Shown: positions 3,701-42,988 of the stretch, piece after piece
How positions within the stretch are numbered: position 1 is the first letter of the stretch
Layout of the letters: the number at the start of each line of letters is the position of its first letter
Virus record (IMG/VR): IMGVR_UViG_3300009503_000040
Span: 1 to 53,653 of that record
DNA from: a virus
Taxonomy: Duplodnaviria; Caudoviricetes
DNA: 53,653 nucleotides
Strand: one strand, 5' to 3'
Program-made: the position numbers and the translations under genes
The notes under the pieces: model-generated
What the model was told of the DNA's origin: nothing
Seen by the model: only the letters and a program-made list of their open reading frames with translations
Database searches by the model: none

Positions 3701-6700
3701 CTCTTGCCTGCTTAAGTGAATTGCTGCAATCACACTTCCTTTCTCTCCTCTTAATTCAGTCATAATAACGTAACTGTTAGGCATTGTAGCTGATTTAAAT
3801 ATCATTATAGGATCATGTAATTCTTTTGGCAAATCTTTTATTAAATCTAAGGTTAAATTGTCTTTAGTGATAGCTTTATTAATAACTTCTTTTGTAATTG
3901 TTATTGGCAGTTGTTTTGCCCCTAATTTAACAAGAATTAATGGTGTATTGGTTATAATTACAGGTTGCGTTGTTTTACCATTTAATAAATCATCAACTTT
4001 TTTATTAAAATTGCTTTGTGCTAAAGAAACCTCAGTATTTATTTCCTCTTTGGTAAATGTTGATTCTGTTTTGCTTATCTTTTTTATTTTTCCTGAAGCA
4101 AGACTATAGAAATATCCTGCCTCAAATGAAAATCCCAACTTATTTAAATAATATGCAATCTTTGACCACAGTTCTCTTAATAATTGAAATAATCTTTCTA
4201 ATCTTGTTCTCGGTTCTGAAGGATTTTTTTCCTGTTGTTCACGCCATTCAATATATTTTTTTGCAAGTCTTTCATGCGCTTCTTTCAACGAAGGATTATT
4301 AGCTACATCCCAAATTTCTCCTTTGCCATTCCATCCATTTTCACGCAATAAATTTCTTGCTAAGTGAGGTTTTGCAAGTGTTATAATCGACGCATGAAAA
4401 CTTTCTTCCCACGCTGTTGTTATATCAGCTTTTTCTGGGTCGAATATTATTGCTTTTTCTATTAAATCCGTTAAACCTTTTGCCTGCTCTTTTGATAAAT
4501 CTTTCTGGCCTATTAACCATTCAGAATTTATTCCCTTCCTAATCTCTTCAAGAAATTTCTTCTTTTCGCTGTCACTCATCTTTACATAAACTTTTTCCAA
4601 AGGAATGGATACCCGTCTTAATCCCTGTGCTGCTTCCCCTGTTTGCTCCAACTTGTTTTCATGTGCGGAAATAATCTCTTGCAATAATTTTCTTAAATTA
4701 GTATCTTTGATTGTAAATTTAGAAACGGCCTGTTGTGAAGATAGGTTGTTTAGCCTAACGATGTACAACAGGTCGTTTCTATTTATTTCAAGCGTTGAAT
4801 TATCATAATGCCATTTACCAGTATTATCTACTCCAACACTAATTTTAACTGTAAAATCTTTTCCATCAATTTTTACTGATTTAAGAAAATATTCAAACTT
4901 ATCATATCCTTTAATATTCTTTTCATTTTTTAACTCTCCAATATAAATAGCATCTCTTAATATTCCTGGTGTATTTTTATTTACAACCAGCTGCTCATAT
5001 CTGCCAACATGTGTAAATGGTTTTTTCTCACTTTCTCTGCCAATGAATATTTCTTTGCCCGTGTCTTTATTTATTACACTTTTAGGATGTATTTTTTTAT
5101 AATATTTTCTTACTGTATGGGTAATTTTAAGTCTGTTTTTTTCCCAATTATCTTTATTAATATCAAATCCTAATTCCTTCAAGTCATTGTTATATTCAAT
5201 CTCTTTATCATTAATTATCTTTTTATAAATCTCTGCTTTCCCCTCTTCTGTGTTTTTTTGAAATAAACTTTGTTGTTCTCCGCCAAATAACTCATACTGA
5301 ACATTTTTATTTTTTAGCTTCAATATTTTTTTATTGATTGTTTCAAGTTCAGTCTCTGCTTTTTGAATAGTCTCAAAATCATTTTTCTTTTTTGCTTCTT
5401 CAATAACATATTCAAGATGTCTTTTCCTGTCTTGCAATAATTGTATTTCACTTCTTCCCTCATCAAATATAGAATAGCTCTCTGTTGGTTCTGCGGTTAA
5501 CTCTATTTCTTCAATTGGTAAAGTTTTCCTGATTAAGACGGGATTGCTTGCTTCTTCTGGTTTGTTCTCAGGAATCCATTCTTTCGGAATTGGTAAGACT
5601 TTTTCTCTGTAATCTAATAATAAATTGCCGTCTTTTTTTCTATTCCTTACTGCTTCATTTAATTTATCTTTTAAATATGTATAACTCTTTATTAACTCAG
5701 GTTTTTCTTTTATTGCACGCCTGATAAAAACATTTACATTTTCAAATCTTTTTCTTTCAACAAAATTATTTAAAAAACTTGCTAATGCTCTTTGTATCTC
5801 TTCTTTCTGTGTGTATCGTTCTAATGTTAATAATTTCTCTCTGACAGGCAATTCATGATCAAATGAATTATAAGCCCTCAATAAAGCAATTTCAATTTCA
5901 TCTCTTGGACTATCTTTATATTCAATATACTTTTGATAAAGTATTTGTCCTGTTTTATTTATTTCTTGTCGGATTTCCTCTTCGCTAATTCTTCCAGCAG
6001 CTTTTGTCTTGCTTTCAATATCCTCAGCAAGTTTTTCGAGTTCTGCCGCATCTCCGCTGGTGATAATTTGTGTGGCGATTTCTTCATCTATTTCCCCTCT
6101 ATTAATTGATTTTTCTAATTGCTCAAATATATCAAATTGATTATTAATTATCTCGCTGATATTATTTTCTAATTTCTTTATTTCTTCTGTGTTCGCAAGA
6201 ATTTCTTTTTGAAATAAATTTTTTTGTTCTAATGGTGCACCTTTCGACAAAGCAGTTAATTCTCTGTTTCTCGCTCTCAATAAATCTATCTTCTTTTGAA
6301 TATCTCTTGTATCAGCTCTCGCTCTTGCACCTGTGCTTTCCAATTTGTCAAGTGCAAGTTTTTCATTAGGCTTAAATGTAATATCTGTTACTCTGTCTTC
6401 TACTTTATTAAAAAATTCCTCTTTGGTAATAAATGAATTTCTTAATTTATCCCTGTAGAAATAATCAAATAATTCCTGCTCATGTCCGTCTGTTATTTGT
6501 GGAAATTGCTTTCTTAATTCTCCTACCCAAGAAGCATTTCTTTCTAAATATGGATATGACTTCGCTGCTTCTGAATTTAATGCTCTTATAAATTCACCTT
6601 CCTCATTTAAATAAGATAAATTATCAAGCAGTTTTATTCTTGATTCTTTTTTGAATATATCTAATAACTTAGATTTTGAATAACCCTGTTGTTTTGCTCT

Positions 6701-9700
6701 CTTATATGCTTTAATATCAGATAATAAATTTTCTTGTGTCGACTTGCGGTTGCTTTCTATTATTGCATAATTAATTGCTTCTTCTTCTGTCCCCTCAAAA
6801 AATTTAACAGGTATTGTTTTTGCATTCCTTCTCTTCATTCCCTCTAAACGAGAATGTCCTGCCAATACATAAATATTATTATCCTTTGGGTCTTTCCATA
6901 CAATTATAGGGTCAAATGCTGCAGGGTTATAATTCTTTTCAATTGCTCTCGCTGTTTCTTCACTGTAAGATTCTGCTCTATTCTGAAACCTGCTTTCATC
7001 TGTTTTTATTTCTCTAATTGGAATTTCTTTTACTTCAGCAAATTTTGTCTCTTGAAATTTATTCTCAATTTCTTTTGCAGTTTCTTTATTAGCAACAGTT
7101 TCATTTATTGCTTTTTTAATCTCTGGTTCGATAACTTTTTTATTCTCAGCTTTTCCTTTTGGCTCGCCATATAACAGTTCAGCAACATTTTTTTCTGGGA
7201 ATCCATTCCTTTGGAATTTTTCTATTTTTTCTAATTTATCTAATGGTTCAATCCATTCTTCATTCCCTACTTTTACTATTGCAGTCGGAGTATCTTGAAA
7301 TTCTGTAATTTCAAGAACTTCACCTTCTGTAAATTTATCTGGGATATAGTGCCCCGAAACGTATCTTGCTCTTAATTTTACTCTATCTCCTATATTAATA
7401 TTAGGTTCTTTTTTCTCTGTCTTAGTCTGCAAATCGGGATTTTTCCAGTCCACCCCTTGTTTTTCTAATATTCTTCTCGCAGCTTGCGTTGATTCTAAAT
7501 CGGGGTGTCCGTTGGCAATATCAACAAGTTTTTCTATTCTCGTGGGAGGTCTTATTTCTCCTTTAGCAACCTTATCGGCATATTCTTTCCTTAATTCTTC
7601 TCTGCGCTGATTATTTCTCTGCATTTCCTCAGAAACTTTTTTAATGGCTTGTTGTTTTCCTCGACCTTCTTGTATATTCTTATGTAATGCTGGCTCTGCA
7701 CCTCCCATAAATGGAGCTTTATTCTTTGCTAAATAAGTTTCTTCATCGATTATTTCTAACGGTTTTACTTGCTCTTTCGGGTAACTAGGTGTTTCAGTTT
7801 TGATTTTTTGTAAATCTGGATAGTCTTTTAATACTTCCTCAGGGATTTTTTTACCTTCTTTTAATGCTTTCTCAACTACATCTCTGTGTGTAACTGGAGT
7901 ATTTAATCTATTAAGGTATGTTTCTAATTCTTGCTCTGAAAGTTTAATTTCACCTTTTGATGCCTTCTCTATTTTTTGCCTTGCTTCATCAGTAACTCCA
8001 TATAATAATTTTGTTAATTCTTTAATTCTTGCTAATTCTTCAGCTCCGCTTCGTTTCGTAAATTTTTCTTGCCTTGTCTCGGCACGCAATCTCTCTCTCT
8101 CATTATTCCATTCTTCCGCTGTCATTTCATAAGGTTTCTTCTCTTCTGTAGTTTTAGTTTCTTTTGGGATTGGTTTAGTTTTTTCTGTGCTTTGTTCTTC
8201 TGTCGCTGATTCTTCATCAATTTCAGTCTTTAGTTCTTTTTCCGAAGGAATGGATTCCCGGCTTTCAGCTTTAGGATAATATGAACTAATAAATTTCCCT
8301 TCTCTAAAATCACCGATGTCTAACTCTTCATTAATTGCTGCACTTGTTATATAATTTTCTGCAAATTCTTCTGCTTTTTCTTTATCCATTCCTTTCTTAA
8401 TTAAATCATCAGTTAAATATCTAAAAGCTATTGCTAATGGGTCTTTATGACTTCCTTCCCCCATTACAAATATTTTTTCTACTCCTTCGGGAAATTTTAT
8501 TTTTACTGCTTTCCCACTTTCTGCACCTATTACATTCTCTTTTAATCTTTCTTCTGCATTGATTAATTTTAATTTTTGTTCTGCAAGTCCATATAAATCT
8601 GAATCAACATCTGCACCAAGTAAATCTGCAGCTAATGTTCTTCTTGCAAAATCTTCTAACAATAATCCTTTTTCTAATTCTTTATCTTCTGCATTATTTA
8701 ATCTTGCCTTATTGTTAGGCAGTTTAAGATAATTATTGAATTCATTTTCAAAATCTTTACCTAATTTATTTTTTGCTTCTTTTATAACTTCTTGAACTGG
8801 CAAAGTAGTTAATATTTCTTTTGCTTTTTCTGCATCTTCTCTCTCACTTCTGGATAATCGTTCAATGGTCTCAGCGGGTGTCTTTTGTTGAATGTCCTGG
8901 CTGCTAATTCCTTTGCCTTCCTCGCTGGCAGTCCTTTCTTCAGATAATAATCCCTTATTGCTTCTTCCGAAGGAATGGATTCCCAGTATTCCTTCGGCAT
9001 TTTCACCTCCTATTCTTTTAATTTCCTCTTCTAATAACTTAGGATAGTTTTTTTGTAATTGTAATTCTTCTGAAGTAAATTTAGTTTTACCTTTTACAAT
9101 ATCTTCTGCTAACTTCCTTACATTCTTTATCTCATCTGATTCTAATAATCCTTTTACTCCTGTGGTCTTTTCTATTGGAATTTGTTCTTTTTCTCTTATT
9201 TTGGGTATCCATTCCTTCGGAACTGGTTTTTCTCCAAAAAATAATTCTCCTGAAGTTGGTGCTAATTTTTCTAATTTGCTTTGTATAATAGCTTCTTCTT
9301 CTGGAGTTCTACCCTTTAAATTCTTTGATGATTCAATAACTTTTTCTGCAGTTTTTGATAATGGAATTCTTTCTGATGGAATAATAGGCAAGCCTTGATA
9401 TGGTGTCACTAAGGTTTTATTCTTAAATGCTTCTTCGAGTCCTTCATTAATTTTCTTTTCAAGCGTTTTATCTAACTTTATCTTAGCTCCCTTAATTCCT
9501 AAAATAGTCCCAAAGAATAATCCATTTTCAACTAACTCTTTTGCTATTTCTCTATCAGTCGGATTTAATGAATCAAATGCCCCGGCTTTTTGAAGTTCTT
9601 CTGTCCCTTTAGATGAAAGCAATGAACCAATACCTACACCAGGACCAAAAGCAAAAGGTACTATTATATTTGTTATCTCTTCTCCTTTTTTTCTGTCATA

Positions 9701-10690
9701 ACCTAAACTTTCAGCAATGTCTCCTCCTATTTTAGTTGCAACTGGCATTACCGCTGTAAACCCCATTACCGCAGGAATTGAAGATATAATCCCTTTAATT
9801 GCACCTGCTGCTTGTTCTCCTAATCCTCTGGCAGCTGTTTTTAACCCGGCCGGAATTTGTTCAGGTTCTTCTTCCGAAGGAATGGAATCCCAATATTTTG
9901 ATTTTACCTGATAGCCCTGTTCTTTATATATATTGGCTATTCCCGGGTCAGTAGTATTTGTTATTTCTTCCCCTCTGTCATTATAAATTGTATAAATATC
10001 TTTTACTTTTTCCTGCCCTGTAATTTGTCGAATTCCTTTACGAATATTTTCTCTTCCTTGATATATTTTTCTTAAAGCATCAGCAAGATTCTCTGGGACA
10101 CTTTTTATCCCTTCTTCTAATTTCTCAATATATCCGCTCAAATAAGATTGTGCTTTTCTGGGTGCTTCTTTAACAAATTTAGTATCTGGAACTGAATACA
10201 AATTAGATTGATTAATTTGTAGTGGTGTAAATCTCTTCTCTTTGCTTGCTTGAATAATATCTAATATACCAGTTGGTTCTATCACCTGCGAATTATCTTT
10301 TACTTGTGCTTGAGATATTAAATTCCCAATTACATTTTTTGACTTTTCTGCTCTATATGCTGAATCTTTTTGAGCATCTGTTTGGGAATCCATTCCTTTG
10401 GAAAAATTTTGCCTTAACCAATAATCCGCACTAAAAGGATCCTCTGCCTGTCCGCCTTCTTTTTGGTGGACTTGTCCGCCTTCTTTTTGGCGGAACTGTC
10501 CATTGTTTTTTTGTTCGTTAAGAATATTTTCAACATAATCTATACGTTTGCCTGTTTCTATTAATTTCTTCAGACCAGGACCAAAATTATTCTCTGTCTC
10601 TGTAATCGAATCTGGGAATCTCCCAAAGGGATGGATATCCACATTCCTTTGGAATAAGTCAAGATTTATTAATTTTTCTAATCCTGTCAT
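737..10690 (-). CDS. Giant polyvalent virion/ejection protein (KOW-like, ParB-like+HTH, LPD3-like, degenerate zincin, MuF_C-like domains)
   Basis: 3317-aa ORF at the end of the ejection cluster; PIIVW..VLAGHSRL ParB motif; VINKDTG..IFIG..KIDGKDFTVKI LPD3-like; TPLILVKLGAK..LHDPIMIFKS..IASVYSK MuF_C-like. Confidence 0.8.
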   Translation of the reverse strand: MTGLEKLINLDLFQRNVDIHPFGRFPDSITETENNFGPGLKKLIETGKRIDYVENILNEQKNNGQFRQKEGGQVHQKEGGQAEDPFSADYWLRQNFSKGMDSQTDAQKDSAYRAEKSKNVIGNLISQAQVKDNSQVIEPTGILDIIQASKEKRFTPLQINQSNLYSVPDTKFVKEAPRKAQSYLSGYIEKLEEGIKSVPENLADALRKIYQGRENIRKGIRQITGQEKVKDIYTIYNDRGEEITNTTDPGIANIYKEQGYQVKSKYWDSIPSEEEPEQIPAGLKTAARGLGEQAAGAIKGIISSIPAVMGFTAVMPVATKIGGDIAESLGYDRKKGEEITNIIVPFAFGPGVGIGSLLSSKGTEELQKAGAFDSLNPTDREIAKELVENGLFFGTILGIKGAKIKLDKTLEKKINEGLEEAFKNKTLVTPYQGLPIIPSERIPLSKTAEKVIESSKNLKGRTPEEEAIIQSKLEKLAPTSGELFFGEKPVPKEWIPKIREKEQIPIEKTTGVKGLLESDEIKNVRKLAEDIVKGKTKFTSEELQLQKNYPKLLEEEIKRIGGENAEGILGIHSFGRSNKGLLSEERTASEEGKGISSQDIQQKTPAETIERLSRSEREDAEKAKEILTTLPVQEVIKEAKNKLGKDFENEFNNYLKLPNNKARLNNAEDKELEKGLLLEDFARRTLAADLLGADVDSDLYGLAEQKLKLINAEERLKENVIGAESGKAVKIKFPEGVEKIFVMGEGSHKDPLAIAFRYLTDDLIKKGMDKEKAEEFAENYITSAAINEELDIGDFREGKFISSYYPKAESRESIPSEKELKTEIDEESATEEQSTEKTKPIPKETKTTEEKKPYEMTAEEWNNERERLRAETRQEKFTKRSGAEELARIKELTKLLYGVTDEARQKIEKASKGEIKLSEQELETYLNRLNTPVTHRDVVEKALKEGKKIPEEVLKDYPDLQKIKTETPSYPKEQVKPLEIIDEETYLAKNKAPFMGGAEPALHKNIQEGRGKQQAIKKVSEEMQRNNQRREELRKEYADKVAKGEIRPPTRIEKLVDIANGHPDLESTQAARRILEKQGVDWKNPDLQTKTEKKEPNINIGDRVKLRARYVSGHYIPDKFTEGEVLEITEFQDTPTAIVKVGNEEWIEPLDKLEKIEKFQRNGFPEKNVAELLYGEPKGKAENKKVIEPEIKKAINETVANKETAKEIENKFQETKFAEVKEIPIREIKTDESRFQNRAESYSEETARAIEKNYNPAAFDPIIVWKDPKDNNIYVLAGHSRLEGMKRRNAKTIPVKFFEGTEEEAINYAIIESNRKSTQENLLSDIKAYKRAKQQGYSKSKLLDIFKKESRIKLLDNLSYLNEEGEFIRALNSEAAKSYPYLERNASWVGELRKQFPQITDGHEQELFDYFYRDKLRNSFITKEEFFNKVEDRVTDITFKPNEKLALDKLESTGARARADTRDIQKKIDLLRARNRELTALSKGAPLEQKNLFQKEILANTEEIKKLENNISEIINNQFDIFEQLEKSINRGEIDEEIATQIITSGDAAELEKLAEDIESKTKAAGRISEEEIRQEINKTGQILYQKYIEYKDSPRDEIEIALLRAYNSFDHELPVREKLLTLERYTQKEEIQRALASFLNNFVERKRFENVNVFIRRAIKEKPELIKSYTYLKDKLNEAVRNRKKDGNLLLDYREKVLPIPKEWIPENKPEEASNPVLIRKTLPIEEIELTAEPTESYSIFDEGRSEIQLLQDRKRHLEYVIEEAKKKNDFETIQKAETELETINKKILKLKNKNVQYELFGGEQQSLFQKNTEEGKAEIYKKIINDKEIEYNNDLKELGFDINKDNWEKNRLKITHTVRKYYKKIHPKSVINKDTGKEIFIGRESEKKPFTHVGRYEQLVVNKNTPGILRDAIYIGELKNEKNIKGYDKFEYFLKSVKIDGKDFTVKISVGVDNTGKWHYDNSTLEINRNDLLYIVRLNNLSSQQAVSKFTIKDTNLRKLLQEIISAHENKLEQTGEAAQGLRRVSIPLEKVYVKMSDSEKKKFLEEIRKGINSEWLIGQKDLSKEQAKGLTDLIEKAIIFDPEKADITTAWEESFHASIITLAKPHLARNLLRENGWNGKGEIWDVANNPSLKEAHERLAKKYIEWREQQEKNPSEPRTRLERLFQLLRELWSKIAYYLNKLGFSFEAGYFYSLASGKIKKISKTESTFTKEEINTEVSLAQSNFNKKVDDLLNGKTTQPVIITNTPLILVKLGAKQLPITITKEVINKAITKDNLTLDLIKDLPKELHDPIMIFKSATMPNSYVIMTELRGEKGSVIAAIHLSRQEQNHIVNKIASVYSKERDKTFIEWIEKGLLRYYNKNKSQIWLQSRGLQLPKEVTKSGHTKILTEEDFVNDKLRQKISEIQGELYPKDLEYYLNRIEKIKNIFELKNWKKKHEAEIDELPAWDKEEIIYAWNKRHKDFTGQEGNWKTAEAKQKNKYENTKEAYKKYLPEASEIYDEGFRRYTDFSEKIKEKAGNISPDDILKLYREVIKAKLREYEKSKEETGTFVEPKTDITDKKAEEIKKEIEKYLINKNIPAETQEKILQTAEEIINNPKNRIGKHTKIKRLTYFGEKVKIMTLKYGAAGAELAQRMAKGNVIQGQLVDKYFQIVNKIKDIYDDIRSEEYGEQRIKEIEDKIINALEDRANYKEYLETDDEIKLYELYKMIYGDKDMNDGLYAEIKKAGYPVRTDYFPHIIRDGFIIDEIVSDPKDIIKTDVRGLNNFIYADSRYLKPREFDIEDIKRDLLSVTQNYIFSVAKALAYKDAVNYYYTDFKKDIPELLRKQGFSTAIEFMRSNLNPELPSKNLAAKFFRGIRSAEYMNFLTFSLKNAVQNYTQKDFARLYMTNEAVKLTDKIFYKLKTPTGNLLNAIHEASQETPRFLELTAEEANRSKILKINERIKNYEPFHLAEMTNWRYAELGGIIDYVTKQKAYKDLINKGMGEIEAINKVLEDKKMFDMAVRNGMDLAANSQISPTAAYRPSLFDKEIVRFFLMFRRFPITHLEHLSQTLFKSLEGAEGLRAQRILRRGLSEDVKTVEALRAVEYFRKAMDIMIDKIKNKKDYKDYEIGTIEEMRDWLKQQEKILNKTIEKLEPIKNKSEIIYHWSKYYAKMLMISTLFQFLYDIMDRMFKQIINGDDEEKRMQDLLKSGRLTEKQKRALITELAFKSIFDSMPLPAYGLNPANLMITPLIPKVEIFPYGNYSIFNERGIVRSITNYGLNIVPGLGLVDRVTGRVLSNKITDIISPKQERKNQIKMIPPGRGRVNERPGLGR
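5959..6087 (-). CDS. Possible nested out-of-frame small ORF (42 aa, MKKSPHKLSPAEMRQ...)
   Basis: GAGGGG 6 nt upstream of the ATG; locally raised GC; lies entirely inside the giant gene. Confidence 0.3.
   Translation of the reverse strand: MKKSPHKLSPAEMRQNSKNLLRILKARQKLLEELAKRKSDKK
8809..9000 (-). CDS. Probable nested out-of-frame small basic protein (63 aa)
   Basis: GGAGGTG SD at 9004-9010; MPKEY[WESIPSE]EAIRDYYLKKG...AKELAARTFNKRHP reads like a small phage protein once the 21-nt element is removed. Confidence 0.5.
   Translation of the reverse strand: MPKEYWESIPSEEAIRDYYLKKGLPARKAKELAARTFNKRHPLRPLNDYPEVREKMQKKQKKY
10451..10494. repeat. Tandem REP-like palindromes TCCGCC-N8-GGYGGA inside a CDS (24-bp period)
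   Basis: Two copies; they encode the QKEGGQ repeat. Confidence 0.8.
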
Positions 10691-11859
10691 TATTTCAATC
10701 CTTGATAAATTACACTATAGTATTTAAGAAAATCAGCTATTTCGCTTGCTTCTTCATCTGATAAATTGCCAGCTCGTGCATGTTTTATTGCCTCGTCTTT
10801 TAATTCCTTTGGTGATAATCTCCTCCCCCAAAGTTTTTCAATATTTTCAACAAATTCATAACTTCTCGGACCTAATGTTTGGAGCTTAACATTTTGCAAT
10901 GCGTTTTCTTGACGATACTTTTTCTCAGTTTCACTTATTTTCATCGGAACACCAGCCGGGTCTAATTTATATTGCCCTGTTGTTTCATCTCTTACATAAT
11001 TCCCTTTATCATCAACTGCAAATTTCAACACATTGCCATATTCATCTGTTACATATTCGTTTGGATTGATTATATCTGCTATCAATTTTGATGTAGCAGG
11101 CGATAATGATTTTGATTTTTCTTTTTTATCTTTTTCCGAATTATCATCTGATTTAAATTGCCACTCTTTTTCTGGTGCTCTTAAATTTGTCCTTACGAAT
11201 TGCTTCTTTTCAAAGTCCCATTGATAGATATATCCATCTGCCCCGACTTTCGTAAATGGATTTTGTTCTTTTTGTTCATAAGGCTGTCCTTCAGCAATTT
11301 TAATTGGTTCGGTCCCTGGATATTGAATAAATCTCGACTCGCCTCTGCCAAGATTAAATGCTTCAGGCTGTTGTGGTTTTAAACTTTCCGCTCTTTGACT
11401 TAACAGATTCCCAAGTAAATTAATTTTTGCTGCTTTATTTTCATCTATATTCTTATTTAATAAAATTGGCAAAACATTTTCTTGAAATTCACCTAATATA
11501 TTTTTTGCTCTTTTGTATCTTTCTATGTTCGGGATAGATATTGTTTTATCACCAATTTTTATCTGTGTTGGCGGTATGTAATCCCCTAAAATATAATCAC
11601 CTGGAGATTCCATATTAATTTTATCTTTTCCTAATTGTATTTCTTCTCCAACAGATTTGCCTGGCACATATCTAATATCATTTGGATCAAATCCTTCAGA
11701 AATTTGTTTTTGTTTTGCAATCGCTTCGTTATACACATTTAATAAATTATTATAAAAATCCCTTTCTTCCTTTTGCCTTCTTAATTGGTCAAATACATTT
11801 AATACATCATTTAATGCCTGGCGTCCATATTTATAATAACTTGTTGAATATCGTGCCAT
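10690..11859 (-). CDS. Putative DNA ejection/internal virion protein
   Basis: 389 aa; coupled to the giant gene; position typical of the podovirus ejection trio. Confidence 0.55.
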   Translation of the reverse strand: MARYSTSYYKYGRQALNDVLNVFDQLRRQKEERDFYNNLLNVYNEAIAKQKQISEGFDPNDIRYVPGKSVGEEIQLGKDKINMESPGDYILGDYIPPTQIKIGDKTISIPNIERYKRAKNILGEFQENVLPILLNKNIDENKAAKINLLGNLLSQRAESLKPQQPEAFNLGRGESRFIQYPGTEPIKIAEGQPYEQKEQNPFTKVGADGYIYQWDFEKKQFVRTNLRAPEKEWQFKSDDNSEKDKKEKSKSLSPATSKLIADIINPNEYVTDEYGNVLKFAVDDKGNYVRDETTGQYKLDPAGVPMKISETEKKYRQENALQNVKLQTLGPRSYEFVENIEKLWGRRLSPKELKDEAIKHARAGNLSDEEASEIADFLKYYSVIYQGLK

Positions 11860-11860
11860 T

Positions 11861-12493
11861 TTAACCTCCTAATAATAAACCGAGTAAAGAAACACCGCTT
11901 GAACCGCCGCTTACTGGTATGCTTGCAATTTGTGCTGCAGTCCCTAATCCAGCAAATAAATCATCAAGCCATGTCCCGCTGTCTAATGCACCAAGTAAAT
12001 TCTGCTGCTGACCATATCCAGTGCTTAATCCGCTTAATAAATTTCTCATATTAGATAAATCAACATTAGAAGCAAGCTGAGTTTGATTTAATTTATTTTG
12101 ATTAACATATTTCATTAAATCTGATAATGATGAAGCTTCATTTATTCCTAATTGCCCAAGAACATTATATTTGTTTTTATTTATATTGCTTGCAATATTG
12201 CTCAATGTATCATTAACAACAGAACCGCCTGTAATCCCTCGAGATGCTAAAGATGATACTGCCCCTTGCTGCTGTTGTGCAATATCTTCTGCAATGTTTC
12301 TTTTTAATATGTTTTCTTGACCAGAAAAAATTTCATCTAATTTTTTTGATATATCTTCATATCCAAAAGGCTCTGCATAATTTTGAAATCTATTCAGCAC
12401 ATTATATTTGCCGCTCTGTAAATCTTTAGTAAAATTTTGTAATTGCTCTAATTGTCTTTGTGCTTCAGCTTCTTGTCTTGATTGACCTGCCAT
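11861..12493 (-). CDS. Putative DNA transfer/ejection protein
   Basis: Q/N/G/S-rich helical protein, SLASRGITGGS motif, G/L-rich hydrophobic C-terminus. Confidence 0.6.
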   Translation of the reverse strand: MAGQSRQEAEAQRQLEQLQNFTKDLQSGKYNVLNRFQNYAEPFGYEDISKKLDEIFSGQENILKRNIAEDIAQQQQGAVSSLASRGITGGSVVNDTLSNIASNINKNKYNVLGQLGINEASSLSDLMKYVNQNKLNQTQLASNVDLSNMRNLLSGLSTGYGQQQNLLGALDSGTWLDDLFAGLGTAAQIASIPVSGGSSGVSLLGLLLGG

Positions 12494-12504
12494 ATTTCAC
12501 CTCC

Positions 12505-12540
12505 ATTCGCCTTTGGCGAATCCATTCGCCTTTGGCGAAT
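12505..12540. repeat. Tandem REP-like palindromes ATTCGCCTTTGGCGAAT x2
   Basis: 12505-12521 and 12524-12540, intergenic. Confidence 0.9.
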
Positions 12541-12911
12541 TAATAATAATTTTTTTCCAATATTTTGTGATTTTCAAATACTTCATAAAACCCAATTTTC
12601 TTAAATAATCCTGCATTCTTATCATTTGCGTAACATCTTATTATCTTTATACCTGCTTCTTTTATTTTATTTTCTATCCAGTCAAAAAGTTTTTTCCCAA
12701 TCATTGGATTTTCACTGACAAACGGTTCTATCATTAATACATATCTTAAATTAGCAATAGCTTTAATCTCTCCATTATTATCTTCGGCAATTATTATTTT
12801 CCCTTCTTCAGGGACAAACAATCCATACTTTTCAGAAAACTCTTTAATCTTACTGCTGTCATTTTCTAAAATGTAGTCTCTTATTTTTGGGAATCCATTC
12901 CTTTGGAACAT
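12540..12911 (-). CDS. GNAT-fold protein (podovirus tail/ejection-associated)
   Basis: GKKLF..GIKIIRCY..GLFKKIGF motif; start taken at ATG 12911 (the ORF track starts at 12932, overlapping the upstream gene). Confidence 0.65.
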   Translation of the reverse strand: MFQRNGFPKIRDYILENDSSKIKEFSEKYGLFVPEEGKIIIAEDNNGEIKAIANLRYVLMIEPFVSENPMIGKKLFDWIENKIKEAGIKIIRCYANDKNAGLFKKIGFYEVFENHKILEKNYY

Positions 12912-12919
12912 TCTTTTTA

Positions 12920-14362
12920 TTATATATCCCATTTATTTAATAATATATTTTCTATTGTTTGAACATCACTTAAACTAAGAGCAGAATTAAAAACTATTAC
13001 TTCATATAAACCGCCATTTAAATATTGTGAAGTAACAAAACCGCTAATAGTTATTTTATTAAGAGTAATAGTCCCAACATCCATTGCCATTTGATTCACT
13101 TCATTTTGTCCATTGAGTCTTGCGAATATTTGTGTCCCGTTAAAAACCCATGTAACTAAATACAATTTATTTATTTGTAATGTAGTCATTCCCGTTGCTG
13201 TAACATTAGACCCTGCGTCATCTCTTCTAAAGCACATAATTTTATCATGAGAACTTCCTCCATTGGCGTAAAAATTCATTAATGGAGTTGTTGATGAGCC
13301 TCTTATAGAAAATAAAACAGTATTGCCGCTTGGTAAAGAATATGGTCTGAAAACATAAAAAAGTGTAATCGGTTTATCCGAACCTGAAAATTGTGAATAT
13401 AAGTTTGAATTAACCATTAACATTGAATTGTTAATAAATTTTACAAATGGGAATGCTGCTCCATTTCTAATTTCATAGGCAGGAAGAGGAAAAACAGAAG
13501 TGCTTGAATCAAGAATTAAATTATTATTATTTCCTGATTTATCATTATAAAATCCTTCTTGATGTAAACTGTCCCACCAAGCTGTTGGAGAAAGTGACTG
13601 TATTGTGCTGTCATCAATAAATTTTCCGAAAGTAATCCCTCTTGGCTGCGGTTTCCATAAAGAAAGTGTGCTGTCATAAACCAAAACTTTACCATTAGAT
13701 AATCCCTCTAAGTCTACATCATTCAATTCAGCGATAGAGCCTGCTCCTCCGCTTTCTGCTGTCCTCCATTCAGTATCGTAATCATTATTTGATTTTTTAG
13801 TTAAAACCTGCCCTGTTATTCCGCCTGCTGGAATTCCTATTCCATCTAAACCATCTTCACCATTTGCACCATTATAAACTGTAAAAGTCCCTAAATTGAT
13901 TGTTTCATCTGCATCACCCCAGACTGTATATGTATCTGTCTCTCCTGGTTCGTTTGGTAATCCTGAAACTGCTGTTGTTGAAGTAAACTCAATGTGGTCT
14001 ATCCCCTGTCCATCAATACCGTCTGAGCCCGCTGCTCCTTGCGGTCCTGTAATCTCATTTAATGCAACAAGGTCATGCCATTCTATTTCGTTCTTGTATC
14101 TCCATTGAATATGTGTGGCTGATTTTTGAAGTTCTATTTCTCTTGCATTAGAAATACCTCCTCCTAAAAGATGATATTCTCCATCCGAGAGTTTGATATA
14201 TTCCTTTACAACTCCATCTTCTTTCACTAAAAATCTTGCACCGACTGGCATCAAATTTTTTGGCGGCAGTTCACTTGTTTCTATACCGATTCCTTTTTCT
14301 ATTTCAGAAATCATTTGAAACAATTCACGGGATAAATATTTTGAATACTTTTTCAAATCCAT
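12920..14362 (-). CDS. Tail fibre protein with collagen-like segments and a C-terminal LamG/ConA-like domain
   Basis: GPQGAAGSDG, GGITGQVLTKKSNNDYDTEW, LNGGLYEVIVFNSALS motifs; likely start MDLKKY. Confidence 0.75.
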   Translation of the reverse strand: MDLKKYSKYLSRELFQMISEIEKGIGIETSELPPKNLMPVGARFLVKEDGVVKEYIKLSDGEYHLLGGGISNAREIELQKSATHIQWRYKNEIEWHDLVALNEITGPQGAAGSDGIDGQGIDHIEFTSTTAVSGLPNEPGETDTYTVWGDADETINLGTFTVYNGANGEDGLDGIGIPAGGITGQVLTKKSNNDYDTEWRTAESGGAGSIAELNDVDLEGLSNGKVLVYDSTLSLWKPQPRGITFGKFIDDSTIQSLSPTAWWDSLHQEGFYNDKSGNNNNLILDSSTSVFPLPAYEIRNGAAFPFVKFINNSMLMVNSNLYSQFSGSDKPITLFYVFRPYSLPSGNTVLFSIRGSSTTPLMNFYANGGSSHDKIMCFRRDDAGSNVTATGMTTLQINKLYLVTWVFNGTQIFARLNGQNEVNQMAMDVGTITLNKITISGFVTSQYLNGGLYEVIVFNSALSLSDVQTIENILLNKWDI

Positions 14363-14363
14363 T

Positions 14364-15815
14364 TTAACTTCCCACAATCACTTTAATTGTATAAACTACT
14401 TTTAAAATTTTGCCATTATCTACATTTATTGGCGAGCCTAAAACATTTCTTGCAAGAAGAAATAAAAATGCTTGATAAAATGAACTATCTCCTAAGTTTG
14501 TTCGATCTGATGAAGCTCCCGTAATTCCATATTCTTTTACTTGAATTGTATTCCCCGAATTATTTTCAAATGCTTTAACGATATTAAATTGTGCATAATT
14601 TGAACCTATTTCAAAATCTTCTGCAAATCCGCCGTAGTAAAGCATCTGATTAGTTGATTTGCCGTGTTGTATTAAACTTCCTAAATTATAATCACCCATT
14701 GATACGGGTGTGTCGCTCATTCCAATCAATATTCCTTGTTTCCATGCTGATTCATTTTCATAATTTGGATATAGTTTTACTTCACCTCCGCTGTTAATTG
14801 CACTGAATGAAGTAAAATCTGGATAATGTGCTCTTGATACATTATTAATATCAATAATTGCTCTTAATGTTTGCCCTGCATGCCTATACAATAATCTCAT
14901 AAATGGGACTAAAAACCCGCCTGCATCAGTGCCTGAATTCAATGTAGTTTTGATTCTATAATTAACTGTCAATGTTTTGCCTGGATTAACATTTACTCCG
15001 CCTGATATTAAATCCCTCATAACCAAAAGATTATAAGAAGAAGTCCCTGCCCTCATACACAACCCAATTTCATTAACCTGAACTGTAATCGATGAATTGT
15101 TTGTAAATGTCCTCGTAAATGTTATTTGAACAGAAGCAGAATCATTCGTGTCTTGTGATACAATTGAACTGTTATATATTAATCCCCCGTTTGCTGAAGT
15201 CGAAGGTATTTGTTTTTCTAATAGATTATCATCAATTGTTACAGGTGAGGTCCCAGTCCCAATAATAATACCAGAATTTGCAAAAGAATTATAAGAAGGA
15301 TTTCCTAAATTTGTTACAGGAATATATATAGCAACTCCTCCTGTTCCCGTAGTCCATCCACTGCTGTATGTTGTTCCTTCAAGTTCAATAATTGAATCAC
15401 TTATTCTTGTCCAGTCATATCTGCCGTCAATATTAACTCCCTGAAATCCCCCTAATGTAATTTTACCTGATGTCTGACCGCTTAATATAGATGTTGTAAA
15501 TGTTATTCTTATTTTATTACTTGTTCCTGCCGATAGTGAAGAAATACCAGGACTCCCGCCTGCAGTTATAGTAGTAAGTAATCTGTAAAAAGTCCCTCCC
15601 ATTACATTGTTTCTTGTATCTCTTCCCATCTGTAAATAAAGTATTCTCAAAAAATTTGCTAATATAGAATCCCCTTTCTTTGTCAATACATGTTTTTTTC
15701 CATTCTTATCTGTTAAAAACAAATCAAGATATATATCAAGGTCACCACCGTTAATTAATAGTTCTTTTCTGATAACCTTTTGTTCTTTTTCTTCAAATAA
15801 TTTTATTGCTTCCAT
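14364..15815 (-). CDS. Virion structural protein with an internal tandem domain duplication
   Basis: Two homologous halves (GIIIGTGTSPV/GILIGMSDTPV; FTNNSSITVQVNEIGL/FENNSGNTIQVKEYGI). Confidence 0.65.
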   Translation of the reverse strand: MEAIKLFEEKEQKVIRKELLINGGDLDIYLDLFLTDKNGKKHVLTKKGDSILANFLRILYLQMGRDTRNNVMGGTFYRLLTTITAGGSPGISSLSAGTSNKIRITFTTSILSGQTSGKITLGGFQGVNIDGRYDWTRISDSIIELEGTTYSSGWTTGTGGVAIYIPVTNLGNPSYNSFANSGIIIGTGTSPVTIDDNLLEKQIPSTSANGGLIYNSSIVSQDTNDSASVQITFTRTFTNNSSITVQVNEIGLCMRAGTSSYNLLVMRDLISGGVNVNPGKTLTVNYRIKTTLNSGTDAGGFLVPFMRLLYRHAGQTLRAIIDINNVSRAHYPDFTSFSAINSGGEVKLYPNYENESAWKQGILIGMSDTPVSMGDYNLGSLIQHGKSTNQMLYYGGFAEDFEIGSNYAQFNIVKAFENNSGNTIQVKEYGITGASSDRTNLGDSSFYQAFLFLLARNVLGSPINVDNGKILKVVYTIKVIVGS

Positions 15816-15851
15816 ATTTACCCCTTTTTATTAAGCCTGCTTGTAGAATGC

Positions 15852-15920
15852 AATAAAAAAAGCCAATACCAGTAGCTATGCAGACCGGTATCGGCTCTTT
15901 ATTATCAGATAACCGATTTA
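15852..15920 (-). terminator. Leader+terminator element, copy 1
   Basis: AGCCGATACCGGT/ACTGGTATTGGCT stem with G-U pairs plus U-tract; leader homologous to the copies at 30455 and 31140. Confidence 0.8.
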
Positions 15921-15947
15921 ATAATTCATCCCGCCTTACGGGATAAA

Positions 15948-16877: not shown

Positions 16878-16878
16878 T

Positions 16879-17334: not shown

Positions 17335-17336
17335 TC

Positions 17337-17879: not shown

Positions 17880-17882
17880 ACT

Positions 17883-18383: not shown

Positions 18384-18393
18384 TTTTGCTCCT

Positions 18394-18693: not shown

Positions 18694-18695
18694 TT

Positions 18696-20141: not shown

Positions 20142-20148
20142 TAATACC

Positions 20149-24565: not shown

Positions 24566-24584
24566 TTTATTTACTCCTTAAAAT

Positions 24585-26229: not shown

Positions 26230-26244
26230 TGTAAATCTCCTATT

Positions 26245-30821: not shown

Positions 30822-31118
30822 TTGAATTATTTCTTCATCACTCTTGCCGAAAAAGTTTTTCGCATATTTTGTAAACTCATCAAAGCTGTCAAATATTTTG
30901 GTAAAATGTTTGTATGAACTTTCTACAAGACCATTTTTTTGTGGTTTTGTTGGAAGTCCCTCAATATCTACATCAGCCATTACTTTGCCGTCAACTTCCT
31001 TTATTCTAATGGAAGTAGATATTTTATTTTTCTTTAAATCTTTTGCAAGATTAAACTTTTCTATTACTCTTTCCTTTGCAGTTTTCCTATCTTCTTCCAA
31101 AGGAATGGATTCCCACAT
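30804..31118 (-). CDS. Hypothetical protein
   Basis: GGAGGTG RBS before ATG 31118; the 21-nt element directly follows the ATG. Confidence 0.7.
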   Translation of the reverse strand: MWESIPLEEDRKTAKERVIEKFNLAKDLKKNKISTSIRIKEVDGKVMADVDIEGLPTKPQKNGLVESSYKHFTKIFDSFDEFTKYAKNFFGKSDEEIIQIAKGE

Positions 31119-36417: not shown

Positions 36418-36430
36418 TGGATTCCCATTT

Positions 36431-37790: not shown

Positions 37791-38419
37791 TTTATTACCG
37801 TTATTTTAATTTCTGGATGTATTATTTTAAAGATACTTTCAAATAATCTGAATTTTAATTTCCATAATTCCATTTGAACACCCTTAATTTCTACATATTC
37901 AAGTGTCCCGTCTTTATGTGTTAACACAAAATCAATGTAATAATTACATATATGAGTAAATGATTTTCCTTCTTCTTTTAATTTTAACATTGGCATATCA
38001 GTCAATACAGCTTTATTATTCTCTTCAATAACATTTATCTCAATTTTTGATTGTCTTTCCCATTCTTTAATTTCACCTGATAATTTCAATAAATCGAGTT
38101 CCTCAGCATATTTAGCTTCCCAACCGCTGTGATATTTTACACCATTATACACTGTCTTTCTATGTTTATTAAGACGTGGTTTTTTCTTAAATATTTTTTT
38201 ATAATTTTCTGCACTTATTTCTTCGGGTAATTCATCTGGACTTCTATAAAAATTAATTTTCTGGGAATCTATTCCTTTGAGACCAGAACAATGTCTGTTT
38301 TTCTGGGTATCCATTCCTTTGGAATTTATCAGATTTTTATGACCATATTTTATTTTTTCTTCATACATGTAATTATTATCTCCATTAAACAACCGAAAAA
38401 ATATCATCAGTTTGGTCAA
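37787..38419 (-). CDS. DUF1064-like PD-(D/E)XK endonuclease
   Basis: KTVYNGVKYHSGWEAKY..YYIDFV..YVEIKG; true start uncertain. Confidence 0.7.
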   Translation of the reverse strand: MTKLMIFFRLFNGDNNYMYEEKIKYGHKNLINSKGMDTQKNRHCSGLKGIDSQKINFYRSPDELPEEISAENYKKIFKKKPRLNKHRKTVYNGVKYHSGWEAKYAEELDLLKLSGEIKEWERQSKIEINVIEENNKAVLTDMPMLKLKEEGKSFTHICNYYIDFVLTHKDGTLEYVEIKGVQMELWKLKFRLFESIFKIIHPEIKITVIK

Positions 38420-38768: not shown

Positions 38769-39777
38769 AATTCATTTCCATTTCGCTTTGACGGGACAAT
38801 TTGTCTAATCTCATATTAGCTATTATTATATAATCTTGATTTAATTCAATCCCTACATAATTTCTATTTAATTTTTTCGCCATTAGTGCGGTAGTGCCGC
38901 TTCCCATGAACGGGTCCAGAATTATACCTCCTTCTGGACAACTTGCTAAAATTGGAATCTCTAAAAGTGATGATGGATAAGCAGCAAAATGGTCAACATT
39001 AATATTAAATTCTTTAGAAAACGAATGAGGTTCATAATTTATTTGCCATACCATAGGAATATTTTTCATTAATTTTGGGGATTCATTATATTGTTTTTGC
39101 ATATCCTGTTCCGAAGGAATGTATTCCCAAAAGAATAGATTCCCAGAAGAATAATCTATAGTTTTAATTGGAATGCAGACATTATTTAAATTAAAATAAT
39201 ACCGTTTATTCTTCGTGAAATGGTATAGATATTCATAACTGAGAATAAATCTATCTTTAGCAGAACAAGGAATTACTGTTCCTATTGTAGTTTTTTCCTT
39301 TTTAATCAATATTTGTTTAGCCCAAATTATTTTTTGTCTCAATATCCATCGTTGCTCATCTATCATTTTTATTGCTAATCTTTCAGGTTTAAGTAATAGA
39401 GATTTAGCAGGATAATTTTTAATTCTTGCTCTGCCAGAATAAATATTTTTCGATAGTTTATGCTTGCCAGGATTATTGCCATGACAAAATCTTTTATCTG
39501 CTCTGCCGCTGCTCGCATAAACATCACCCATATTAATCCATAATGAACCGTCTTTTTTGAGAACTCTTTTTAATTTGTTTGTTATCAATAATAATTTATT
39601 AAGATATTCTTCAAAAGAATTTTCCAATCCTATCTGTCCAGTTACATTATAATTTCTCATACTCCAGTAAGGCGGTGAAGTAATAATCATATCAATTGAC
39701 TCTTGAGGAATTTTATTTAATTCTTCAATAGTATCACCGCAGATAATTGTGTTTATTATGTTTTCTATTTTATACAT
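38755..39777 (-). CDS. Orphan beta-class N4/N6 DNA methyltransferase
   Basis: TSPPY motif IV precedes HFAAYP and LDPFMGSGTT motif I. Confidence 0.9.
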   Translation of the reverse strand: MYKIENIINTIICGDTIEELNKIPQESIDMIITSPPYWSMRNYNVTGQIGLENSFEEYLNKLLLITNKLKRVLKKDGSLWINMGDVYASSGRADKRFCHGNNPGKHKLSKNIYSGRARIKNYPAKSLLLKPERLAIKMIDEQRWILRQKIIWAKQILIKKEKTTIGTVIPCSAKDRFILSYEYLYHFTKNKRYYFNLNNVCIPIKTIDYSSGNLFFWEYIPSEQDMQKQYNESPKLMKNIPMVWQINYEPHSFSKEFNINVDHFAAYPSSLLEIPILASCPEGGIILDPFMGSGTTALMAKKLNRNYVGIELNQDYIIIANMRLDKLSRQSEMEMNYEQK

Positions 39778-39780
39778 TAA

Positions 39781-40155: not shown

Positions 40156-40166
40156 TTTAGTCCTCC

Positions 40167-40883: not shown

Positions 40884-40885
40884 AA

Positions 40886-41278: not shown

Positions 41279-41325
41279 TTTTACTCCACTAATTTTTTTA
41301 CTATTTTAATTTTTCATCCTCATTT

Positions 41326-41754: not shown

Positions 41755-41779
41755 GTTTTATGTATAATTCCTTTGGAAA

Positions 41780-42988
41780 TTATTTGCTTAATAATTTTTC
41801 TTGTTCAATTAACACATTTATAATTTTATCTCTGTCACTACCGCCAAAGGCTTCAAGTCTTTCTTTATTATCTTTTTTGAATTTCCTTAACTCTGATATA
41901 TTGCTGATAAATTTTATTGCTTTAATTACTGCATCAGGATTCTCCCAATCTTCTGGACTTAATTTTTGAGTATCAATTCTTTTAGAATTAGTTTCCTTCT
42001 CTGCATTTGGGAATCCATTCCTTTGGAATTTATTTTCTTTTTCTGCTTCTTCTACTTCTACTTTTTCTATCTCTGAGAATTCATTCTTTTCTCGAAGGGC
42101 TGTGGCAGTATTATTTATATTCTCTAAATTTTGTCTTGCTTCTGGGCTATCACTTTGGGATTTATCATCTGGGAATCCATTCCTTTGGAATTTTTCAATT
42201 TCTTTTGGGAAAGCATCATTAACGCTGTGATATCCTTCTTCAATACCTTTCAATGCTCCAGATATCAAGAGAATCTTATCAATATCCCAGGTTTTTGTTT
42301 TGCCGAAATTGAGTTCTACTCTTTCAATTGGAACATTTAATCTCTCAGCTCTCTTTACTGTCATTTCCCTTGCTTTATCCAATCCATTCTTCTTTACATA
42401 TTCTTCTAATTTTTTTCTGTAACCTTCTTTTGCTTTTTTAATTCCTGCTTCAATTACATAATTAGGTATTGCATTAAGAATTACATTTCGCATTGCCTTT
42501 GAAGTCCCTATCTGAAATACAATCTCATCATTACGCTCTTTATCATAAATTGCTTTTCCATTTTTGGTTTTTAAAATCTTTTTCTTTAACAGAAATGGTC
42601 TTGATAAATTGAACCCTGTTTCAAAATCAACAAAGTCTCCTATCAATATATATTTGTCCCCGATATCAAAAGGTCTTACTTCAACTGAATTATTTCCCCA
42701 ATTTCGAGCAAGTATTAATGCTCCGTTAATTCCAACCCCTTCTATATATTTTCCGCCTTGAGGATATGAATAATAGAAATCTTCGCCTGCAAGTGCTGCT
42801 TCGCTTTCGACTCTGCTGATTATATCAGGCAGACTTCTTTTTTTTATAACCTGCACAGCTGTTTGATAACGAGTTTTTGTTTGAACCAGACCCTGCACCC
42901 TCATAAGTTCAGTTGATGAAAGAGTTTCTTCGCTTACTTCATCTATCTGAATATCTTGAATAAGTTCATTTTCAATTTGATTATTCAT
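41780..42988 (-). CDS. Putative recombination (SSAP-position) protein
   Basis: Adjacent to the exonuclease; FYYSYPQGGKYIEG..LARNWGN..SKAMRNVILNAIP; two 21-nt elements in the linker. Confidence 0.55.
   Translation of the reverse strand: MNNQIENELIQDIQIDEVSEETLSSTELMRVQGLVQTKTRYQTAVQVIKKRSLPDIISRVESEAALAGEDFYYSYPQGGKYIEGVGINGALILARNWGNNSVEVRPFDIGDKYILIGDFVDFETGFNLSRPFLLKKKILKTKNGKAIYDKERNDEIVFQIGTSKAMRNVILNAIPNYVIEAGIKKAKEGYRKKLEEYVKKNGLDKAREMTVKRAERLNVPIERVELNFGKTKTWDIDKILLISGALKGIEEGYHSVNDAFPKEIEKFQRNGFPDDKSQSDSPEARQNLENINNTATALREKNEFSEIEKVEVEEAEKENKFQRNGFPNAEKETNSKRIDTQKLSPEDWENPDAVIKAIKFISNISELRKFKKDNKERLEAFGGSDRDKIINVLIEQEKLLSK

Follow-up and report, generated by a model that had tools for sequence, protein, structure and literature searches.

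A 21-nt repeat unit, probably gained by insertion, in the genes of a temperate hot-spring phage

In this study, we analyzed the IMG/VR virus record IMGVR_UViG_3300009503_000040 (Caudoviricetes) over its full 53,653 bp, hereafter the window, and a 21-nt unit, TTCCRAAGGAATGGATTCCCA, that recurs in its genes. We conclude, with a probability of roughly two in three, that the unit belongs to a family resembling repetitive extragenic palindromes (REPs) and small dispersed repeats (SDRs), which is present in a lineage of temperate hot-spring phages and, by inference, in Ignavibacteriales, and that its copies were gained by insertion. Searches with Pfam and PHROGs showed that the window carries a temperate-phage gene set. 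The structural and lysis genes encode a P22-like portal, a large terminase, a capsid protein, an SU10-type adaptor, and a lysozyme. A polyvalent protein of 3317 aa contains MuF_C and LPD3 domains. Recombination-type genes for a PD-(D/E)XK exonuclease and a NinB/Orf-like mediator are present, as are a DUF1064 gene, two N6/N4 methylases with a Tsp45I-type restriction enzyme, a CI-like repressor, and a tyrosine integrase with a tRNA-Asp beside it (at 53580). The two ends of the window (1-223 and 52332-53622) were joined in a contig of a relative (L018, 12105-13496), in which the end runs directly into the start. Therefore, the record is a complete, circularly permuted genome and the tRNA-Asp is phage-borne. 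The runs holding the phage were labelled as hot-spring and sediment metagenomes, and a megablast search of GenBank phages with window 12000-36000 gave no match.

The unit had 19 matches with up to 3 mismatches in the window; 0.00 were expected, and none of 100 shuffles matched. Seven copies were exact (7196, 8965, 10383, 12888, 31095, 42008, and 42170), five had 1 mismatch (8240, 9202, 9872, 38304, and 39109), and those at 4595 and 5569 had 2 and 3 mismatches, respectively. An earlier note on this DNA had listed 14 positions, all of which are among the 19; the copies at 27057, 38262, 39125, 43827, and 47669 come in addition. Two more were found when the cut-off was raised to 4 mismatches (10621 and 52309), and one when a stem position was left free in the pattern (27096). 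The twelve top 12-mers of the window, with 7-11 occurrences each, were all derived from the unit, while the next-ranked 12-mer had only 5. Direct reading bore out the claim of the earlier note that the unit, being 7 codons long, is a multiple of three and free of stop codons in all six frames. All six frames are indeed used, the sixth (GNLFFW) solely through one degenerate copy with 3 mismatches. The encoded peptides were FQRNGFP (four times) and PKEWIP (twice), the same counts as noted earlier, together with xKGMDS (four times), the WESIPxE type (six times), GIHxFG (twice), and GNLFFW (once). Nineteen of the 21 copies were located inside open reading frames (ORFs), which cover 95.6% of the window, so that this share matches chance placement. 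The polyvalent gene, 18.6% of the genome, held 10 of the 21 copies (binomial p 0.002), and 4 of the 19 intragenic copies were at codon 17 of a gene or earlier (p 0.02). No copy with up to 4 mismatches was found at positions 12909-27056, in agreement with the gap seen earlier by eye in the tail/lysis region (12.9-27.0 kb).

The copies were compared with those in two related contigs. L065 is a 17,506-bp metagenome contig that is 98.30% identical to window 737-17968 (291 mismatches in 17,127 aligned nt). REL, a contig of 52,204 bp, shares synteny with the window; nucleotide identity in the syntenic blocks is 65-79% (about 70-75% overall). X3 and X5 denote independent runs, and G306 and L051 further sources of orthologs. 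The features are as follows.

4595-4615, plus strand: unit with 2 mismatches, antisense to the polyvalent gene, RVSIPLE; common to L065.
5569-5589, minus strand: unit with 3 mismatches, IPKEWIP, in a divergent patch; the L065 copy is in the opposite orientation a few codons off.
7075-7076, no strand: empty site in the window; an exact 21-nt unit is present in L065 and in a run X3 contig.
7196-7216, minus strand: exact unit, FQRNGFP, in a linker of the polyvalent protein; common to L065.
8240-8260, plus strand: unit with 1 mismatch, RESIPSE; common to L065.
8965-8985, plus strand: exact unit, LGIHSFG; the 21 nt are missing in L065 and the X3 contig, without target duplication.
9202-9222, minus strand: unit with 1 mismatch, PKEWIP; opposite a 10-codon gap in REL.
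9872-9892, plus strand: unit with 1 mismatch, WDSIPSE; opposite an exact 7-codon gap in REL.
10337-10338, no strand: empty site in the window; a 21-nt unit is present in L065 and in a run X3 contig.
10383-10403, minus strand: exact unit, SKGMDSQ; opposite an exact 7-codon gap in REL.
10613-10655, plus strand: 42-nt composite (limits +/-1 nt); missing in L065, the X3 and X5 contigs, and REL.
12888-12908, minus strand: exact unit right after ATG, M-FQRNGFP-KIRDY; the REL ortholog reads M-KIRDY.
27057-27139, minus strand: decayed composite (copies 27057 and 27096); a decayed composite also in REL, none in G306.
31095-31115, plus strand: exact unit right after the start codon, M-WESIPLE; missing in the REL, G306, and L051 orthologs.
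38262-38282, minus strand: degenerate unit with 3 mismatches, LKGIDSQ; no REL gap opposite.
38304-38324, minus strand: unit with 1 mismatch, SKGMDTQ, in the DUF1064 gene; opposite an 11-codon gap in REL.
39109-39145, plus strand: unit with 1 mismatch and an overlapping partial second copy with 3 mismatches, in an N6/N4 methylase gene, GNLFFWEYIPSE.
42008-42028, minus strand: exact unit, FQRNGFP, within a 20-codon window-specific stretch.
42170-42190, minus strand: exact unit, FQRNGFP; no REL gap opposite, in a poorly conserved linker.
43806-43847, plus strand: partial unit, then a unit with 2 mismatches (43827-43847), in the N-terminal extension of the PD-(D/E)XK nuclease.
47669-47689, plus strand: degenerate copy with 3 mismatches between genes; the ATG at 47696 is 6 nt downstream.
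52309-52329, plus strand: degenerate copy with 4 mismatches between genes; the integrase ATG (52332) is 2 nt downstream.

Eleven indels separate the window from L065, and four of them are exact units. Two of these were present only in the window (21 nt at 8965 and 42 nt at 10613-10655), and two only in L065 (one of 21 nt near 10338, another of 21 nt near 7076). No target duplication was observed at any of the four exact filled/empty sites. The flanks of the four indels contained 0-1 mismatch per 100 nt, compared with 1.7 expected; no co-conversion was found around them, and because their flank mismatches are below background, the units were not imported with diverged DNA. The other indels were of 1, 3, 15, 15, and 27 nt, plus two in the divergent patch 5544-5597, where the copies of the window and L065 differ in place and orientation. 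In all, 7 copies were common to the two sequences and identical, and 3 were private to each. A 21.6-kb contig of run X3 contained all four L065-type alleles, and the X5 contig also skipped the 42-nt composite. A piece from run X4 across 8965 had 21 gap letters, though the indel table has none for X4, and protein P0001 (of a 143.5-kb contig) is identical to the L065 product. These alleles were read from assembled contigs only, in which rare alleles and absences are unreadable, and many of the 20-23-nt joints in the run contigs are other contigs sharing the motif. Units are gained as exact 21-nt blocks or as 42- or 63-nt nests, in either orientation, with unchanged flanks and without target duplication. 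The earlier proposal of a small insertion element is supported by these three 21-nt indels and one 42-nt indel at 98.3% identity. The same alignment also shows a 27-nt tandem repeat (9 codons, QKxxGQVH-type; window 10490, L065 7411) that differs in copy number and is unrelated to the unit.

The L065 comparison also bears on whether the copies were brought by homologous recombination between mosaic phages, with the motif acting as a linker or boundary that promotes module exchange. The window/REL alignment blocks break at several copies (e.g. 4582/5606 and 7051/8286), the copies in patch 5544-5597 are placed differently in the window and L065, and the phage has its own exonuclease and NinB/Orf-like mediator. 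However, the four exact-unit indels have flanks below the background of mismatches, and units are present in host enzymes and in miniature inverted-repeat transposable elements (MITEs); we consider exchange of this kind very unlikely.

REL was filed in a metagenome-assembled genome (MAG) labelled Candidatus Pacearchaeota (L018-L020, G001:C1). Since all 15 motif hits of that archaeal MAG lie on this one contig, REL is presumably a mis-binned phage contig. It contains 15-16 copies of the unit. Among 46 reciprocal-best ortholog pairs, no canonical copy was found at the same place in the window and REL. Fourteen of the 18 testable window copies were opposite a gap in REL, three of exactly 7 codons (9872, 10383, and 31095) and the rest of 9-77 codons. 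At these 14 copies homologs do not align without gaps across the motif, and the clean 7-aa (21-nt) indels that the earlier note had asked to look for are found in these three sites, as well as in a host enzyme, where a 7-aa unit is nested in an 11-aa insert. The same note had claimed that removing the unit leaves natural sequence. This was confirmed at 12911 by the REL ortholog, and at 31118 by the orthologs of REL, G306, and L051, which all lack the unit. The PD-(D/E)XK nuclease has an 18-codon N-terminal extension, MWISIPSEDIHIPLE, that is made of a partial and a full unit, and REL is without this extension.

G306 is a complete 55-kb relative with a portal 53% identical to that of the window, and it contained zero copies of the unit. 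Against G306, the REL unit at 30101 forms an exact 7-aa gap (between GEFTKNITS and DNIY), and the window is also without it. Two phage sites, window 31095 and REL 30101, are thereby polarized by outgroups, and the 42-nt composite is missing in both L065 and REL.

In the unit, TGG and ATTCCCA come after a 4-bp stem that encloses a triloop (T-N-CC RAA GG-N-A). Stem pair 2:10 varies among copies (T-A, C-G, G-C, and A-T), and the second half of the unit can pair with the 3' arm of the stem, giving two mutually exclusive hairpins. In the 42-nt composite, an inverted variant unit (10621-10641) interrupts another unit after its 13th base, at the center of the second palindrome of the latter. Fold-back copying was rejected as its source, the inner unit differing from the outer one at 4 positions. 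REL has a 63-nt element in which the unit is split at the same place by a member of a second 21-mer family (9 hits in REL, 0 in the window), itself split by a further unit. Two REL loci carry this 63-66-nt nest, with clean insertions of 21 and 22 aa, and the 42-nt form recurs at several loci. The 66-nt nest folds at -19.2 kcal/mol (z -5.4). Degenerate copies are present in the window at 27057, 38262, and 39125, and at site 27057 both the window and REL carry decayed composites. Units land in unrelated genes, in other repeats, and in their own copies, and the copies decay after insertion. The inverted pairs 7196/8240 and 4595/5569 were considered as ends of larger cassettes, which found no support; one pair faces the opposite way from the other, and REL is unalignable there.

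Several further observations concern single loci. The copies at 47669-47689 and 52309-52329 have the same changes (GTAAT and TTCACA) and bracket an accessory block; they may have been co-opted as a leader or be left over from a junction. Within 49563-51502, the Tsp45I-type restriction enzyme and an N6/N4 methylase adjoin a gene with a HepT-like toxin domain (51767-52303). The unit at 8965 lies inside two overlapping frames, that of the polyvalent gene and that of a 65-aa ORF on the minus strand (8809-9006) with a strong GGAGGTG-ATG start; L065, which is without the unit, keeps both frames open.

Exact copies of the unit were also found in bacterial records assigned to Ignavibacteriales, Melioribacter, and Rosettibacter, including the named strain Rosettibacter primus. 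Counting the motif in host-type genomes, as the earlier note had proposed, gave just 1-6 copies in each of five carrier genomes, and a match in 13 of the 301 genomes of a phylum sample, with none in 288. We infer that the carrier bacteria of the repeat superfamily are Ignavibacteriales. When 401 genomes of the class of G004 were searched for prophages with the window capsid protein, there was no hit at E 1e-30; because of this, the host assignment is drawn only from the shared motif and the hot-spring habitat. One genome, G067, had 81 hits with up to 3 mismatches, of which about 23 were of the 21-nt type and most others of a 22-nt type, TCCCGAAGGGATGGCTTCGCCA. Open frames of at least 150 aa contained 9 of 23 copies of the 21-nt type compared with 1 of 13 of the 22-nt type (Fisher p 0.06), the latter being intergenic as in classical REPs.

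The 21-nt unit rides inside MITEs in G005 and G067. These unit-carrying MITE-like repeats are of two kinds (L013, L014, and L016 in G005; L021-L038 in G067). One, of about 150 bp, has the ends AGAGACTTCTGAAA and the other AGTCATGCCATGAGTT, and the G067 repeat has variants with a further 22-nt unit. This extra unit, an exact 22-nt relative, was present in 3 copies of the G067 MITE and missing in 7; the three may represent one shared event.

The direction of change is clearest in a host gene with the unit, which encodes the small chain of NADPH glutamate synthase in an Ignavibacteriaceae MAG (L007). We aligned 36 of 120 listed homologs, namely the first 20 and 16 picked for unusual length or lower identity. 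In this set, 27 of 36 were empty and read directly from DELMQN into GYDAVF, including the most distant ones aligned (82-86% identity). An 11-aa insert was found in 2 of 36, and the same insert with a nested 7-aa unit, SSEGMDS, in 6 of 36; the unit was decayed in 2 of these 6. The remaining homolog (1 of 36) had a different 18-aa stretch. The order from the empty site to 11 aa and then to a further 7 aa is the parsimonious reading of this alignment.

Exact 21-nt removal would give the same pattern as exact gain, and of the four window/L065 unit indels, three are without polarity. The polymorphisms could then be mostly precise losses from an old, denser set of units, with the empty sites derived. 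However, the outgroups lack a unit at 31095 and at REL 30101 and also lack the 42-nt composite; most of the glutamate synthase homologs, the most distant ones aligned included, are empty too. In addition, units with 0-1 mismatch sit in DNA that is 25-30% diverged between phages, and the nested forms require insertion. We regard loss as distinctly unlikely, and insertion as the reading that better fits these sites.

The density of the unit differed strongly between phages and bacteria. It was 354 per Mb in the window, 287 in REL, and 248 in G308, compared with 2-22 in the carrier genomes. G308 is an unrelated phage fragment (22%) with a capsid E fold and a ClpP protease, and has 5 copies in 20 kb; in its L001, at 5426-5470, a tandem heptamer repeat (GGAATTA-type) abuts a unit copy. 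In IMG/VR, the 19-nt core was present in only 5 contigs, four with 1-2 copies each and the fifth being G308. Such a density in three phages (about 250-350 per Mb) could be kept by selection if the phage used the 21-mer as a DNA signal, such as a binding site for a phage or host protein (the ParB-like domain of the injected polyvalent protein, for instance), with insertion only supplying the sites. Both orientations are used, 12 of 19 copies have no more than 1 mismatch, and the polyvalent protein has a weak ParB_N match (E 0.0026, below the cut-off). The 7 copies common to L065 are also without substitution, but zero substitutions in 147 nt are not significant at 1.7% divergence, where about 2.5 are expected. 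Moreover, no canonical site is kept between the window and REL, the relative G306 is without copies, copies decay, units nest in each other and occur in MITEs and host housekeeping genes, and so few IMG/VR contigs hold the core. A DNA-level signal, which the earlier note had given as an alternative, is thus not favored, and we consider it unlikely.

We searched for an enzyme that could move the unit. The earlier claim that the window has no evident mobilizing enzyme is borne out within the 59 ORFs searched with Pfam: none of the 59 matched a transposase (Y1_Tnp included), reverse transcriptase, HNH, or GIY-YIG domain. In the bacteria, the earlier note had suggested a gene for a REP-associated tyrosine transposase (RAYT) or another HUH enzyme flanked by the unit. 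Two of the seven Y1_Tnp loci of G067 were inspected (L059 and L063), and such a gene was not found at the inspected locus; the RAYT-like gene at L059 (G067:C41, 1000-2460) has GTAG hairpins of its own, GATCCTCGTAGAGGATC, on both sides, in a mosaic that also includes other small palindromes, ATTCGCCGCGGCGAAT being one. Among other repeats, only 400-500 nt from this Y1_Tnp gene, are relatives of the unit. DUF559 nuclease genes were present in 5 of 5 carrier genomes, but DUF559 was not supported as the mover at the two small genes inspected (L067 and L068). These are flanked by arrays of a different repeat family, GC-rich hairpins of the form CCTCTCCC...GGGAGAGG, and no unit lies within 1.5 kb of them. 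A shared phage enzyme was also rejected as far as the 22% fragment G308 shows, this fragment having no ORF product in common with the window at E 1e-5; the 10 largest ORFs of G308 encode no transposase.

The phage encodes no recognizable transposase, and the unit would be non-autonomous and moved in trans. In the insertion step, a small hairpin might form on single-stranded DNA during replication or recombination and be acted on by a host or phage enzyme, although this step is a guess. In a genome that is 96% coding, the surviving insertions would be those that are of 3n length, are free of stops in the frame that they hit, and fall in a tolerant place. Such a filter would explain why copies follow start codons or occupy linkers of the polyvalent protein (3317 aa), and why the conserved structural genes have none. 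Once inserted, copies would drift and decay. A further-reaching version, in which the 21-mer is active mobile DNA with phages as its main habitat, inserts exactly and preferably into unit dyads in a replication- or recombination-linked manner without a known transposase family, and is a steady source of 7-residue insertions and of start-proximal and linker peptides, including in the polyvalent protein, is unlikely.

Several findings weigh against insertion of a REP- or SDR-like unit as set out above. No mover was found in the window, Y1 transposase genes were present in 6 of 14 controls as well as in 4 of 5 carrier genomes, and the RAYT-like gene is flanked by other hairpins. The density in phages is 10-170 times that of any carrier genome, which a host-driven parasite alone does not obviously predict. 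There was no target-site rule among the clean sites; TC precedes several of them, and A-runs or other words are also found. Seven of the 11 indels between the window and L065 were not units, and polarity was lacking in three of the four that were. In REL, 4 of the 18 testable window copies had no gap opposite, in unalignable linkers, and the 12 testable REL copies were divided into 6 opposite a gap and 6 not, again in unalignable linkers. The window/REL comparison contained 178 gaps in total. Of these, 60 are internal and have well-aligned flanks, and a unit is present in just 1 of the 4 among them that measure 7 aa; by a script flag, only 3 of all 12 7-aa gaps contained one. Since most of the 7-aa gaps are without the unit, units are one class of indel among others. 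Finally, the TTCC-RAA-GGAA triloop hairpin of the earlier note is present in the sequence and its 2:10 pair covaries, but the lone unit folds at -2 kcal/mol (z 0.36), no better than shuffles. The hairpin argument therefore rests on covariation, which may reflect only a few subfamilies.

If such small units do move as exact blocks, they would mark the lower size limit of mobile DNA. They would also show that a virus dense in coding sequence can be colonized and still keep its genes, since the unit is of 3n length and has no stop in any frame. For phage proteins, the units are a supply of preformed insertions, 7 residues long, at N-termini and in linkers, and they account for the unusual N-terminal extensions and varying lengths of the affected genes. 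Filled and empty alleles have been mapped here in natural populations, a cultivated carrier relative, Rosettibacter primus, is on record, and Melioribacter cultures exist. What moves REP-like repeats, a question long open, therefore becomes testable.

Among known systems, SDR1-8 of Nostocaceae cyanobacteria, reportedly described by Elhai and co-workers in 2008, are said to have units of about 21-27 nt and to be perhaps the smallest mobile elements. They are also said to be nested in their own copies and in mini-transposons, with compensatory changes in structure and a heptamer context. No enzyme is known to move them. Our unit is similar in size, self-nesting, MITE context, and stem covariation, and the heptamer context resembles the tandem heptamer repeat beside the G308 unit. 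The taxon and the sequence differ, and the main habitat of the unit is phage coding DNA, in frame. The unit is the same kind of element as the SDRs, not the same family.

Uptake signal sequences and DNA uptake sequences occur hundreds to thousands of times in a host genome and originate through substitution. Like these, the unit is a short word inside genes in several frames and both orientations; unlike them, it has 1-6 copies in carriers, is absent from 288 of 301 genomes, and appears in new copies as exact insertions. The Rickettsia palindromic elements (RPEs) are longer, RPE-1 being about 100-150 bp, and RPE-1 is not known outside Rickettsia. RPEs are likewise in-frame insertions in many unrelated genes that stay open, whereas the unit is only 21 nt and its carriers are phages and bacteria from the phylum that was sampled around Rosettibacter. 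In PMC3733652, RPEs are mentioned among intragenic repeats, for R. conorii.

REPs, as characterized by Di Nocera et al. 2013 (PMC3733652), are palindromes of 20-40 bp that form a stem-loop, often paired and inverted, with superfamilies that carry an unpaired GTAG or CGTC tag at one end. According to the same paper, some REPs are intragenic; as dimers they encode 20-30 aa, either at the N- or C-terminus or within modular proteins. The word "phage" has 0 occurrences in PMC3733652. The 21-nt palindrome is similar to REPs in size, and its intergenic 22-nt relatives in G067 resemble classical REPs. In contrast to these tagged superfamilies, direct reading found no GTAG or CGTC in the 21-mer consensus or its variants. 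The unit also differs in that 19 of its 21 window copies are intragenic, and in that the RAYT-like gene inspected in G067 is flanked by another, GTAG-bearing hairpin. No catalogued family was found for it: at the gathering score, Rfam matched only the tRNA (53581-53653) and not the unit, and full-text literature searches found no description of it, although the supplementary intragenic-REP lists of PMC3733652 may hold related families. REP doublets forming hairpins (REPINs) consist, in Bertels and Rainey 2011 (PMC3116915), of two inverted units that replicate as a doublet, singlets being immobile. Composites of our unit recur (the 63-66-nt nest and the 42-nt form), yet single 21-nt units differ between genomes that are 98.3% identical.

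DDE-type MITEs, which have terminal inverted repeats and a target-site duplication, differ from the unit, which lacks a target duplication at 4 of 4 exact window/L065 sites. The IS200/IS605-derived elements resembling palindrome-associated transposable elements (PATEs) make no duplication, have subterminal hairpins, insert 3' of a fixed tetra- or pentanucleotide, and are moved by TnpA in trans. The lack of duplication at the unit would fit them; no fixed flanking word was seen at the clean unit sites, and TnpA-like genes were present in 4 of 5 carrier genomes and in 6 of 14 controls. In Wu and Hao 2015 (PMC4478555), the GC clusters of yeast mitochondria are small palindromes with fast presence/absence turnover between close genomes, which merge and shuffle into new composites and for which no moving enzyme is known; GC42 has a putative AG target duplication and co-conversion tracts. 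Their turnover and composites are similar to those of the unit. Their setting is organellar, and the unit is without duplication and has clean flanks. The kind of element is already in print, as intragenic REPs and RPEs (PMC3733652), REPINs (PMC3116915), mobile GC clusters (PMC4478555), and, reportedly, the SDRs of cyanobacteria. Different here are the dense phage habitat, the use of all six frames, the self-nesting at the unit dyad, and at least 4 events at 1.7% divergence.

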